The position numbers were made by a program. Source: a virus (Duplodnaviria; Heunggongvirae; Uroviricota; Caudoviricetes). From it: a DNA stretch of 40,154 bases. This document shows, piece after piece, positions 9,001 to 12,000 of the stretch. Each line of letters begins with the position of its first letter. The first letter of the stretch is position 1. The DNA is taken from positions 1-40,154 of the IMG/VR virus record IMGVR_UViG_2531839523_000012; one strand, given 5' to 3'.

Positions 9001-12000
9001 AAAGGTGCTGGCGCTGAAAGTGGATCCGGAGTCGCCGGAGTCTTTTATGTTACGCCCAAAACGTCGCCGCTGGGTTAATGAAAAGTACACGCGCTGGGTT
9101 AAGACACAGCCGTGTGCATGTTGTGGAAAGCCTGCTGATGATCCCCACCACCTGATAGGTCACGGTCAGGGAGGAATGGGAACAAAAGCGCATGACCTTT
9201 TTGTGTTGCCTTTGTGCAGAAAGCATCACGACGAGCTGCATGCGGATACCGTGGCATTTGAAGAGAAGTATGGCTCCCAGCTGGAGCTGATATTTCGTTT
9301 TATCGATCGTGCGCTGGCAATTGGCGTGCTGGCCTGATTTTGTGGAGAAAGTTGATGCGTGATATTCAAATGGTTCTTGAACGTTGGGGGGCATGGGTGG
9401 CAAATAATCACGAGGATGTCACCTGGTCGTCTATTGCTGCAGGATTTAAAGGACTAATCCCTTCAAAAGTAAAATCCCGCCCGCAATGTTGTGACGATGA
9501 CGCGATGATCATTTGTGGGTGCATGGCTCGCCTGAAAAAGAACAACAGCGATTTGCACGATTTATTAGTGGATTATTATGTAGGTGGTATGACGTTTATG
9601 GCGCTTGCCCGTAAACATGGGCGTTCTGATTGCTGGGTTGGGCGTTTATTGCAAAAGGCTGAAGGTGTAGTTGATGGCATGTTAATGATGTTAGAAATTG
9701 AGCTAGAGATGGATCGTTAGAAGACCTCTTATTGAGGGGGTAATTGAATCAGTTTAATGTGTGGGGAGTCGATTTATTCTCCCCATTTATTTAATTAATT
9801 TACTTAAGGTTTTAATTCATCAAGACGTTGTTGGATAGTGTTTTTGCTTGCGTTGTCTGTTATAGCCATTTGTTGTACTTGCCCCATTGCCATTTGAGTT
9901 TCCATCCACATATCGGCCCACACTTTTGTATCGTTATTAACTTGAGCGATAGTAAATCTGACTTTTGATACCGGGGTTGTTGAATAGGCATTTCCGATTA
10001 ACATTTGTCCAAAAACAGCAGAGCCGCCTTCCAGTTCTTTACCACATATAACACTGCTGTTATCCGCGTTGTAAATTATCAACCCTCTACTATTGCAGTA
10101 ATTCACAAGGGCATCTTTGACTTTATCTTTTGTCGTATTTTGATAAACCCCCTCAGGTTTTCCTGATTGAGTTTTCTTTATCAATGGTACGGAAGAAGTA
10201 CAACCTGAAATGATAGTTGCGCTAAGTAATAGTACAGTCATTTTATTCATGTTTCTTATCCATTGTTAAGGGTATACCCACACAATTATTTTTATTGGAG
10301 ATGAATAATCAACCGTTTACAATCGTAAAAAATCAAATATGCTGTTAAGAGTGGTTACTTCGCCACACAACTTAAACCCGCCGCTGAGCGGTTTTTTTTG
10401 TACCTGTAAACTTGGTGCAGTACAGTAAACACGCTGGTGGACAAGTGAAAAACAGCATTTAATCAGGCCTTCTGAAGATATTGCAGTATTAATTCTGTAA
10501 CGTTATTATTCTGCGCGCGGCCCTTTAGCTCAGTGGTGAGAGCGAGCGACTCATAATCGCCAGGTCGCTGGTTCAAATCCAGCAAGGGCCACCAACTGCC
10601 ACTAGCTCATCAGGAAAGAGCGTCAACCCTTTAAGTTGAGAGTGCGAGGTTCGAGTCCCCGGTGGCGGTCCAGTGCCGACTTAGCTCAGTAGGTAGAGCA
10701 ACTGACTTGTAATCAGTAGGTCACCAGTTCGATTCCGGTAGTCGGCACCATGTGCGGGCATCGTATAATGGCTATTACCTCAGCCTTCCAAGCTGATGAT
10801 GCGGGTTCGATTCCCGCTGCCCGCTCCAGTTAGAGTCTTTCAGTCTGCGATGATGGGAAATCCCGGAGTGACTGAAAGACGTTTAAGTTATGAATGATCG
10901 CTTTTTTTGCAAAATTGCTGTGCAGAAATACTAACCTTCGGGCAGGCGATCATTCATAAGCACTCTGCTTTTATTCCGATTAACTGTGGGTGGTTTGTTG
11001 GATAGAGTGCTTCCCTTACTGTATATATCGTTTCGCCCGCTTTTGCGGGTTTTTCTTTTCAAATCCCTTTCATTTCTCAGTGTAAAACTACGCCATCCGT
11101 TATTTGCGGAGGTGAGGCTATGAAATCCATGGACAAAATTTCAACGGGCATTGCCTACGGCACCTCCGCAGGCAGTGCTGGCTACTGGTTTTTACAGTGG
11201 CTTGATCAGGTCAGTCCGTCACAGTGGGCTGCGATTGGTGTACTGGGGAGTCTGGTTCTGGGCTTCCTGACTTATCTGACAAATCTGTACTTCAAAATAA
11301 GAGAAGATAAGCGTAAGGCTGCACGGGGAGAGTAATTCAATGACACAAAAATATGAACTGATTGTGAAAGGGATCCGCAATTTTGAGAATAAAGTTACGG
11401 TAACTTTAGCGTTACGGGACAAAAAACGCTTTGACGGTGAAATTTTAGACCTGGACATCTCGCTGGACCGTGTTGAAGGTGCCGCGCTGGAGTTTTATGA
11501 GGCAGCAGCCAGAAGGAGCATCAGACAGGTCTTCCTGGATGTTGCTGCCGGGTTATGTGAAGGGGATGAGCAGTCACCGGAAAAGCGCCCCATAATTTTA
11601 GAGGCGCAGGGTGTGTGGATAACCTACAAAGGAAAACTGCCGGGAAGAATTACTGGTTCACTGAAGACTCCGCCGAAATGGTAATTTCACCAGCATATTT
11701 TTCTTCCAGTAATACCGCCAGCCACTTGAAAGAATTTTGTTGTTGCTGGGACCATTTGGGGTTGAGTGATTCAAGCTGGAGCGATGCCAGTGTTGGTTGC
11801 ATTTGTTCCTTGGGAATTGAGAATGCCAGATATGAAAATGCGACAGTAAGGGCATTTACATCATCCCGAAGCTTGGAAATGCAGTCGAGCAACTCCTGTA
11901 GAGAAATGGTGCTATTGTCCATAAACAATCCTCTCTATTGTATTTAACTATTCCTTGCCTGATTCAACAGGCCGGGACAGATAAACATATCCAGGGTTCA

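Follow-up and report, generated by a model that had tools for sequence, protein, structure and literature searches.

The interval between the antiterminator gene Q and the holin gene S of an Escherichia coli prophage (positions 9721–11119 of IMG/VR virus record IMGVR_UViG_2531839523_000012, a stretch of 40,154 nucleotides here called the window) is, with high probability, the late-operon leader of a lambdoid prophage of the QuuD/Q21 family. Gene Q is followed by an antisense lipoprotein gene, the late promoter and terminator pR'/tR', a cassette of four tRNA genes with a promoter of its own, two hairpins, a terminator and an S21 holin gene (Table 1). The second tRNA of the cassette (tRNA 2) has the body of argN, a tRNA gene of Shiga toxin (Stx) phages, combined with a UUU anticodon and C33. 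It is tentatively proposed, with confidence somewhat short of even, to be a lysine decoder with an anti-nuclease role. The complete account of leader, cargo, tRNA supply and tRNA 2 is the best explanation found for the interval as a whole, and its chances of being right or wrong are about balanced.

Organization of the late leader

The interval matches E. coli chromosomes at 99.4–99.9% identity across its full length. The NCBI Prokaryotic Genome Annotation Pipeline (PGAP) there annotates, in order, KilA-N, DUF968, antiterminator Q, a hypothetical protein (the lipoprotein), tRNA-Ile, tRNA-Lys, tRNA-Thr, tRNA-Gly, class II holin, YdfR and lysozyme. The four-tRNA array is also found in the viable, plaque-forming temperate phage PhiR47_1. 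A preliminary description of this DNA, made from the sequence alone, had named a number of sequence features, all of which are present where it placed them. It had also regarded the Q-to-S interval as a cargo hotspot, a label that is fair because the same Q allele or type precedes different cargo elsewhere. In another prophage with the same Q allele the cargo consists of the lipoprotein, a small open reading frame (ORF), a helix–turn–helix (HTH) gene, Ile-Arg-Arg tRNAs, TerB and an esterase; in phage PhiR40_1, again with this allele, it is the lipoprotein and a Dam methylase; and in the K-12 prophage DLP12, with the same Q type, it is the antisense porin gene nmpC. Terminator-like sites number eight in the region, compared with 1.9 +/- 1.4 in shuffled sequences, and a search of positions 9600–11300 against Rfam gave no RNA family other than tRNA, apart from spurious antisense matches.

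Alignment of the window with the nmpC–essD spacer of DLP12 shows a single strongly conserved block (10315–10400) containing the pR' hexamers, approximately 35 nt of conserved transcript and a hairpin followed by T8. This block is interpreted as pR' and its Q-loading region followed by tR', because the window and DLP12 share the Q type but not the cargo; the candidate pR'/tR' pair proposed earlier is thereby substantiated (10316–10399). The order seen here, gene Q and then a putative constitutive promoter and a closely spaced intrinsic terminator that both go with the Q type, is that of a lambdoid late leader. Transcription from pR' would be constitutive and would halt at tR' unless Q modifies the polymerase. 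pR' on the plus strand and the candidate lipoprotein promoter on the minus strand lie back to back (10285–10343) with their −35 hexamers 3 nt apart, a layout that may couple the activities of the cargo gene and the late promoter.

An antisense interaction between U34–G42 of tRNA 2 and the late leader was considered, as the complement CAACTTAAA occurs at 10368–10376, just 5' of tR'. This was rejected: the 9-mer sits in the pR'–tR' block common to DLP12, a prophage that lacks such a tRNA and has CAGCTTAAA at this place, and PhiR47_1 has the same tRNA without the 9-mer.

The tRNA cassette and its promoter

ARAGORN finds four back-to-back tRNAs with spacers of 1, 2 and 3 nt, in agreement with the anticodons and boundaries first reported. 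All four exceed the Rfam gathering score for tRNA (RF00005, 29 bits), with E values from 1e-6 to 1e-16, and PGAP calls the same four genes in an essentially identical RefSeq prophage (Table 1). tRNA 1 has the base pairs C4–G69 and C5–G68. tRNAs 3 and 4 are exact copies of host thrU and glyT in flanks unrelated to the host operon of these genes; because of this identity the query matched 5,421 of the 5,426 complete E. coli genomes searched. In the late genes ATA, ACA and GGA occur at 10.7, 12.7 and 12.6 per 1,000 codons, compared with approximately 4.4, 7.1 and 8.0 in K-12, and the ATA, ACA/ACG and GGA/GGG codons are 1.3–2.4 times commoner there than in E. coli. Since the late genes are rich in ATA, ACA and GGA, supplying decoders for these A-ending codons is a reasonable role for tRNAs 1, 3 and 4: the Ile2(CAU) tRNA and the thrU and glyT copies would raise the supply for ATA, ACA/ACG and GGA/GGG.

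The cassette also has a putative sigma-70 promoter, a feature absent from the preliminary description. At 151 loci TTGCAG-like and TATTAT hexamers, 17 nt apart, end 9 nt 5' of tRNA 1 downstream of many unrelated sequences, and the sequence of the 17-nt spacer varies freely. In 60 arrays with the UUU anticodon in the second slot (Lys-type arrays) the −10 hexamer is invariant, with a spacer diversity of 0.23. Conserved hexamers around a free spacer are the signature of a working sigma-70 promoter, and activity is predicted on this basis. The promoter escaped detection in the consensus scan because only 3/6 positions of its −35 hexamer match. The analysis in this way places a cassette promoter, as well as pR' and tR', for this Q type. 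The tRNAs would be made from their own promoter in the lysogen and, in lytic growth, additionally by Q-antiterminated late transcription. Host tRNA-processing enzymes would cut them out of the transcript, and transcription would then cross the two conserved hairpins and the terminator into the holin gene.

The second tRNA is an argN-family body with a changed loop

tRNA 2 had been singled out as atypical for C33 and a T-stem mismatch. Both oddities are real, the mismatch being A51·C63, but the gene is far from unique, being a common allele of the argN body of Stx phages. The sequence and the Rfam alignment give the anticodon loop as C32-C33-U34-U35-U36-A37-A38. The cloverleaf is intact, with U8, A14, G18–G19, the T loop UUCGAGU, an encoded CCA and an anticodon loop of 7 nt. 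Purine 37 and U54-U55-C56 are present and the stems are paired except at A51·C63. The U33 of canonical elongator tRNAs is replaced by C33 in every Lys-type allele.

In alignment with argN (tRNA-Arg UCG, E. coli E2), a gene that GenBank Stx2 phages label 'argN: tRNA-Arg', the acceptor, D and T arms of tRNA 2 correspond and the differences are concentrated in the anticodon stem-loop. IMG/VR scans gave more than 200 copies of the family. Arrays of the type Ile2-Arg(UCG)-Arg(UCU) have the loop CUUCGAA, and in arrays of the type Ile2-X-Thr-Gly the second gene is either Arg(UCU), with UCAAC-CUUCUAA-GUUGA, or Lys(UUU), with UCAAC-CCUUUAA-GUUGA. The stem-loop of tRNA 2 differs from that of its Arg(UCU) sister by exactly U33C and C35U, with no intermediates seen, suggesting that the loop of a phage tRNA-Arg body was changed from CUUCUAA to CCUUUAA. 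Of the GTDB species representatives, only E. coli, Shigella and a single metagenome-assembled genome were found to contain the argN-family body.

The Rfam scores are 43 bits for argN, 56 for Arg(UCU) and 40 for tRNA 2 of the window, and A·C at 51–63 is present in 21 of 49 family alleles. Because argN itself scores only 43 bits, most of the low score of tRNA 2 belongs to the argN body generally.

Proposed lysine decoding and nuclease insensitivity

Recent work has shown that tRNA-cleaving immunity by PARIS, PrrC, retron Eco7 and P2 Old can be overcome by phage tRNAs, to our knowledge almost entirely in virulent, tRNA-rich phages. tRNA 2 would be charged with lysine, would read AAA and AAG, and would keep lysine decoding alive when an anticodon nuclease destroys host tRNA-Lys(UUU).

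In tRNA-Lys, U39A abolishes cleavage by AriB of PARIS and A41C and U16C impair it; the tRNA-Lys of phage T5 (A39, C41 and C16) is resistant, neutralises PARIS and is needed for escape (PMC12409363). tRNA 2, whose body is unrelated to that of host tRNA-Lys, has G39-U40-U41 and C16 in place of the U39-C40/A41 and U16 required by AriB, and by its sequence should escape this nuclease. PrrC cuts tRNA-Lys 3' of U33 (PMC2610378), and against PrrC170 a phage tRNA-Lys rescues infection far better than E. coli tRNA-Lys (PMC11555353). tRNA 2 has C instead of U just 5' of the cut, but escape from PrrC is only a guess because a literature search found no data on the effect of C33. The targets of P2 Old are CNG motifs of the anticodon stem (PMC12445682), and tRNA 2 has none at positions 28–30 or 40–42. 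By sequence alone tRNA 2 resembles a replacement tRNA, with an anticodon that is targeted in the host and different bases at the positions that the nucleases recognize. tRNA 3 was also considered as a resistance variant against P2 Old or PARIS and was rejected, being identical to thrU, which did not rescue P2 Old toxicity (PMC12445682).

Several observations weigh against the proposed role of tRNA 2. U33 is near-universal in elongator tRNAs, and C33 could impair decoding. Although the UUU anticodon and U36-A37-A38 are those of an E. coli-type tRNA-Lys, the discriminator is U73, with C1–G72 in an argN-like body, and not the A73 of tRNA-Lys. The arginine identity element A20 is retained, though without the C35 of an arginine anticodon, the base at position 35 being U. 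The accompanying Thr copy, as its sequence is that of thrU, is presumably just as sensitive to AriB and P2 Old. Sister alleles in slot 2 have loops of 5, 6 or 8 nt that are unable to decode, so the slot could be kept without a decoding function. tRNA 2 is furthermore the least constrained of the four, its diversity being eight times that of tRNA 1 (0.004; tRNA 3, 0.010), and slot 2 is 74–86% identical between array types, compared with 92–100% for its neighbours. A tRNA 2 allele is present in 771 of the 5,426 complete E. coli genomes (14%), and approximately half of these 771 have un-annotated alleles with U8C + C11U, as in 17 of 62 arrays, or with a D-stem deletion, as in the O55:H7, O145 and PPompW lineages; both kinds fall below the Rfam and PGAP thresholds. 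Finally, AAA is not enriched in phage genes, whereas AGA and AGG (6.5 and 5.1 per 1,000) are enriched three- to fourfold, so that the ancestral Arg(UCU) would benefit the phage more.

The same fast evolution, frequent structure-damaging alleles and codon use favouring Arg(UCU) over Lys, together with C33, A51·C63 and the lowest Rfam score of the four, could indicate a relic: a tRNA-Arg(UCU) that was inactivated by U33C and C35U and is drifting, surviving between strongly selected neighbours in a compact cassette in which the other three tRNAs work. The interval would then be a mosaic prophage leader of the ordinary type in which one tRNA is decaying. Drift does not agree well, however, with the diversity of tRNA 2 in Lys-type arrays, which at 0.030 is about eightfold below that of the promoter spacer (0.23) only 30 nt away. 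Most of the polymorphic stem sites remain paired, C2U producing a G·U pair and C63U re-establishing A–U, and across the argN family pairing is kept by double changes at 3–70 (G-C/A-U), 7–66 (C-G/U-A), 27–43 (five pair types) and 30–40 (A-U/G-C). The loop CCUUUAA is invariant among Lys-type alleles save one UCUUUAA, and the allele has spread to 14% of E. coli genomes and is present in a plaque-forming phage. The A·C at 51–63 and the low score, moreover, are common to the whole argN body, accepted tRNA-Arg genes included. The low diversity, the kept pairing, the constant loop and the wide distribution suggest a maintained tRNA-shaped RNA and are counted in favour of the lysine decoder, and the relic is considered possible but doubtful. 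On the earlier suggestion that tRNA 2 might be a pseudo-tRNA or a nonstandard decoder, the evidence is divided.

A third explanation is plain codon supplementation by all four tRNAs, lysine included, or a translational side effect of a variant tRNA-Lys, either by tuning −1 frameshifting at the tail-chaperone slippery site or by placing arginine at lysine codons through the retained A20. AAG is approximately 1.5-fold enriched in phage genes, and the G/T-like tail-chaperone ORFs (22592–22990 and 22999–23328, −1 frame) overlap at CCG-GAA-AAG (22976–22984). Because of this overlap the slippery site likely depends on tRNA-Lys(UUU), which has the same anticodon as tRNA 2, as the slipping A-site tRNA at AAG. 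The lack of AAA enrichment speaks against this explanation, as do the several tRNA-Lys(UUU) genes of the host and the loss of C35, the main determinant for arginyl-tRNA synthetase; the only link between the tRNA and frameshifting is the shared codon. This explanation is very improbable.

If tRNA 2 is indeed a lysine decoder that resists nucleases, one in seven sequenced E. coli strains carries a constitutively expressed, nuclease-insensitive prophage tRNA-Lys, which could blunt the strains' own abortive-infection systems or protect the induced prophage. It would also be a simple example of a tRNA whose amino-acid meaning was changed by two loop mutations.

Variation of the second slot in other prophages

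The second slot is the fastest-evolving of the cassette, with an anticodon loop that is hypervariable across prophages. A pattern-based scan of IMG/VR, anchored on the neighbouring Ile2 and Thr genes and yielding a small sample, identified a sister body between Ile2 and Thr-Gly with an 8-nt D loop, the T loop UUCGAGG, A73 and the anticodon stem CAAC/GUUG. This body is absent from the window and from the GenBank phages searched. Its loops of 5, 6 and 8 nt comprise at least 16 different sequences (for example TAAAT, TTAAT, TGAAT, ATAAT, GTGAT, TTTAT, ATGAT, CCAGGT, CACGGT and CTTGGT). ARAGORN interprets the sister bodies as Phe(AAA), Leu(UAA), 'Stop'(UUA), Ser(UGA) or undefined, and their Rfam scores do not reach the tRNA threshold. 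Slot 2 overall has 22 loop versions in 49 alleles, all with stems maintained; in the 73-nt class three loop positions have three bases each, with only three singleton changes at the other 68 positions. In different prophages a conserved slot 2 body carries Arg(UCG), Arg(UCU), Lys(UUU) with C33 or one of at least 16 non-canonical loops. The pattern looks like loop-specific diversification of a tRNA-shaped RNA, and the loop diversity of the sister body raises the weight of non-decoding readings of the slot.

In one such reading slot 2 produces a non-decoding tRNA-shaped RNA, either a decoy or competitive inhibitor of anticodon-loop nucleases or a processing scaffold, with the loop as its specificity element and CCUUUAA as one state. 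The combination of constant neighbours, a body conserved through compensatory stem changes and the many loop versions would suit such an RNA, and overexpressed viral tRNAs have been suggested to act as inhibitors (PMC12409363). The hypervariable alleles, however, belong to the sister body and not to that of the window, whose class has a regular, invariant 7-nt loop; no partner sequence co-varies with the loops; and the sample is small and comes from pattern-based scans. A purely non-decoding RNA is judged to be decidedly unlikely. A broader possibility, also unlikely, is that diversifying selection acts on the slot 2 loop, making the RNA a rapidly evolving defence (as replacement tRNA, decoy or inhibitor) against the numerous anticodon-loop immune nucleases of E. 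coli, the C33 version of the window being tuned to PrrC, RloC and PARIS.

Searches for partner sequences co-varying with the variable loops gave only chance matches of 7–8 nt, with the exception of one 11-mer in a RefSeq 'tRNA-OTHER' allele (locus L003, 4454–4535); its partner was discounted, being constant and present also in locus L002 beside a normal tRNA. The enlarged loop of the 'tRNA-OTHER' allele contains ACACGATAACA, which recurs 1.16 kb downstream on the other strand (L003, 5643–5653) inside the prophage small RNA (sRNA) AgvB; in L002 AgvB lies at 5588–5649 on the minus strand (Rfam, 96.5 bits). This recurrence suggests that a patch was copied from AgvB into the loop. The 'tRNA-Lys' and 'tRNA-OTHER' annotations and the un-annotated gaps at this slot in RefSeq prophages all represent alleles of one element.

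The lipoprotein gene

The AT-rich minus-strand lipoprotein ORF noted at the outset was recovered as a gene of 148 codons between Q and pR', on the opposite strand to both, in a G+C trough of 0.34–0.40 compared with approximately 0.5–0.59 in the flanks (Table 1). The lipobox IISG/C occupies residues 14–17 and its cysteine is invariant in 21 homologues, as expected of a bacterial lipoprotein. Homologues spanning the whole protein, with identities as low as 50%, are known from Salmonella, Citrobacter, Jejubacter, Xenorhabdus, Enterobacter and Phytobacter, and the invariance of the cysteine and of several motifs among them argues that this is a real, selected protein. The Jejubacter and Enterobacter homologues lie in other mobile-element contexts, consistent with portable cargo. 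Threonine at position +2 directs lipoproteins to the outer membrane by the established sorting rule, and its presence here suggests such a location.

The protein has no match in Pfam, NCBIfam, PADLOC or PDB sequences. Searches of PDB and viral folds with its AlphaFold2 (AF2) model gave only weak best matches to BamC-N/helix-grip folds (TM 0.35–0.45). Comparison with Bor, Cor and exclusion lipoproteins, which the preliminary description had recommended, shows no detectable relation by sequence or fold, and identification as Bor, Cor, Llp or a defence protein found no support in any of these searches.

The gene was probably inserted antisense as cargo and would be transcribed divergently from pR', with its product probably acting in the lysogen. 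Its candidate promoter (Table 1) matches the consensus at 9/12 positions. Another minus-strand promoter match, at 10269–10240, was discarded because it overlaps the start codon and cannot drive the ORF. The hairpin between the convergent Q and lipoprotein genes is the core of a 28-nt inverted repeat, I1, with arms at 9741–9768 and 9779–9806 that are 71% complementary.

Hairpins, lysis genes and other features

The inverted repeat noticed near 10888–10958 was confirmed as two 14-nt arms of 100% complementarity, for which approximately 1e-3 occurrences are expected by chance in the region. It forms hairpin 2, and a further perfect repeat forms hairpin 1. The terminator previously placed at 11036–11059 before the holin gene was likewise detected, as a terminator-like site (11035–11050) with a T run. 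Pairing in both hairpins and in the terminator is kept through two-sided changes in HK639 and in IMG/VR relatives, with compensatory changes at three or more pairs of hairpin 2. Hairpins 1 and 2 are conserved RNA (or DNA) structures, for which processing sites or pause/terminator elements overridden by Q are the obvious candidates.

In strain 510016, which has a near-identical prophage (locus L001, 5308–6948), the lysozyme gene is split by the IS21-family element ISEc62; the copy in the window (12028–12561) is intact, which shows that the window derives from another carrier. The sRNA STnc100 lies 3' of the tRNAs in related Q-to-S regions (L002, 5394–5587; L129, 2435–2607; L141, 2211–2417), accompanied in L002 by AgvB, and Rfam finds neither sRNA in the window.

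Elsewhere in the window, a defence-associated reverse transcriptase (PADLOC RT_UG17, 3.6e-158) and an adjoining SLATT two-transmembrane effector (RTasSLATT, 7.9e-57) are encoded on the minus strand at 36500–38399, and the pair is a DRT-type anti-phage system carried by the prophage. On the plus strand at 38958–39847 an HTH protein is followed by an M78 (IrrE-like) peptidase, resembling the CapH/CapP regulators of defence operons; any system regulated by this pair would lie beyond the end of the window.

Table 1. Features of the Q-to-S interval and loci of the sister body. Positions are those of the window unless a locus is named.
Feature	Position	Strand	Evidence
Q gene, QuuD-type, distant relative of Q21	9355..9720	+	Pfam PF06530 1.8e-51; Q21 structures 6p18/6jnx E=7.5e-9; PGAP 'antiterminator Q family protein'
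Hairpin between convergent Q and lipoprotein genes; likely terminator, T-rich tail on + strand	9763..9782	.	Terminator scan
Lipoprotein gene, 148 aa, lipobox IISG/C, Thr at +2	9804..10250	-	ORF; phrog_3152 1.3e-104; AF2 pLDDT 85
Candidate lipoprotein promoter, TTGATT-16-AATAAT	10285..10312	-	Consensus scan, 9/12 matches
Putative late promoter pR': -35 TTTACA, 16 nt, -10 TATGCT	10316..10343	+	Promoter scan; conserved with DLP12
Putative intrinsic terminator tR', GCCGC-TGA-GCGGT then T8, ~30-50 nt past pR' start	10380..10399	+	Terminator scan, 10380-10392 + T8; conserved with DLP12
Predicted cassette sigma-70 promoter: -35 TTGCAG, 17 nt, -10 TATTAT; predicted start ~10516	10481..10509	+	Hexamer and spacing conservation
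tRNA 1, CAU, Ile2-type, homologue of Stx-phage ileZ	10519..10594	+	ARAGORN; Rfam 72.5 bits; PGAP 'tRNA-Ile'
tRNA 2, argN-family body, UUU (Lys), C33, A51·C63, C1-G72, U2·G71, A20, U73	10596..10672	+	ARAGORN; Rfam 40.4 bits, E=1.2e-6; PGAP 'tRNA-Lys'
tRNA 3, Thr(UGU), 76/76 nt = host thrU	10675..10750	+	ARAGORN; Rfam 73.8 bits; K-12 comparison; PGAP tRNA-Thr
tRNA 4, Gly(UCC), 75/75 nt = host glyT	10754..10828	+	ARAGORN; Rfam 64.9 bits; K-12 comparison; PGAP tRNA-Gly
Hairpin 1, 11-bp stem, inner GGG/CCC hairpin	10835..10880	+	Perfect inverted repeat, arms 10835-10845 / 10870-10880
Hairpin 2, 14-bp stem, structured 44-nt loop	10888..10959	+	Perfect inverted repeat, arms 10888-10901 / 10946-10959
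Intrinsic terminator before holin gene	11035..11060	+	Terminator scan; aligns with annotated HK639 terminator, stem changed but paired
Class II (phage 21 type) holin S, first lysis gene	11120..11335	+	Pfam PF04971 1.4e-35; PGAP 'class II holin'
Sister body of tRNA 2 in other prophages	L131 5537-5612; L141 1716-1792; L180, L183, L148, L136, L142, L159, ~40 more	L131 -; L141 +	IMG/VR

Comparison with known systems

A literature search found no published description of the lysine/C33 re-assignment of the argN body, of the cassette promoter or of the hypervariable loop of slot 2, and a search on ileZ, argN and argO likewise gave no match. For tRNA 2 a close parallel, among phage tRNAs that substitute for host tRNAs cut by nucleases, is the tRNA-Lys(UUU) of T5, which is also a phage UUU tRNA with a body unlike host tRNA-Lys at the AriB positions (A39, C41 and C16, compared with G39-U40-U41 and C16 in the window) and which likewise occurs together with Thr(UGU). 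T5, however, is a virulent, tRNA-rich phage, whereas the window is a temperate lambdoid prophage; its tRNA 2 has a tRNA-Arg-derived body with C33 and U73, and its Thr copy is host-identical and hence presumably cleavable.

Like Bor, Cor and T5 Llp, the lipoprotein is small and has a lipobox, its AT-rich gene runs opposite to the late operon, and its expression in the lysogen is probable, but it shares neither sequence nor fold with them. The late leader of phage HK639 (Q, several terminators and lysis genes) is homologous to that of the window over the 230 nt after tRNA-Gly, in which both hairpins and the terminator persist, their pairing preserved by compensatory changes (locus L257, 1800–2074). 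They are preceded there by only the 3' half of glyT, with no intact tRNAs and a different Q type, so that the HK639 leader looks like a decayed tRNA cassette.

DLP12 (quuD–nmpC–pR' region–essD) has the same Q family, the same promoter-to-terminator block and, between Q and the late promoter, a gene for an outer-membrane protein in antisense orientation, but its cargo is a porin instead of a lipoprotein and it has no tRNA cassette. The ileZ-argN-argO cluster between Q and stx in 933W-type Stx phages agrees with the window in its late-leader position, the Ile2-type tRNA 1 and the argN acceptor, D and T arms of tRNA 2. It differs in that the slot 2 loop of the window has UUU and C33 instead of UCG or UCU and U33, and in that exact thrU and glyT copies stand in place of argO, with no toxin gene after them. 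As a whole the interval is of a known kind, a lambdoid late leader with a tRNA cluster and cargo genes of the sort seen in 933W and DLP12.

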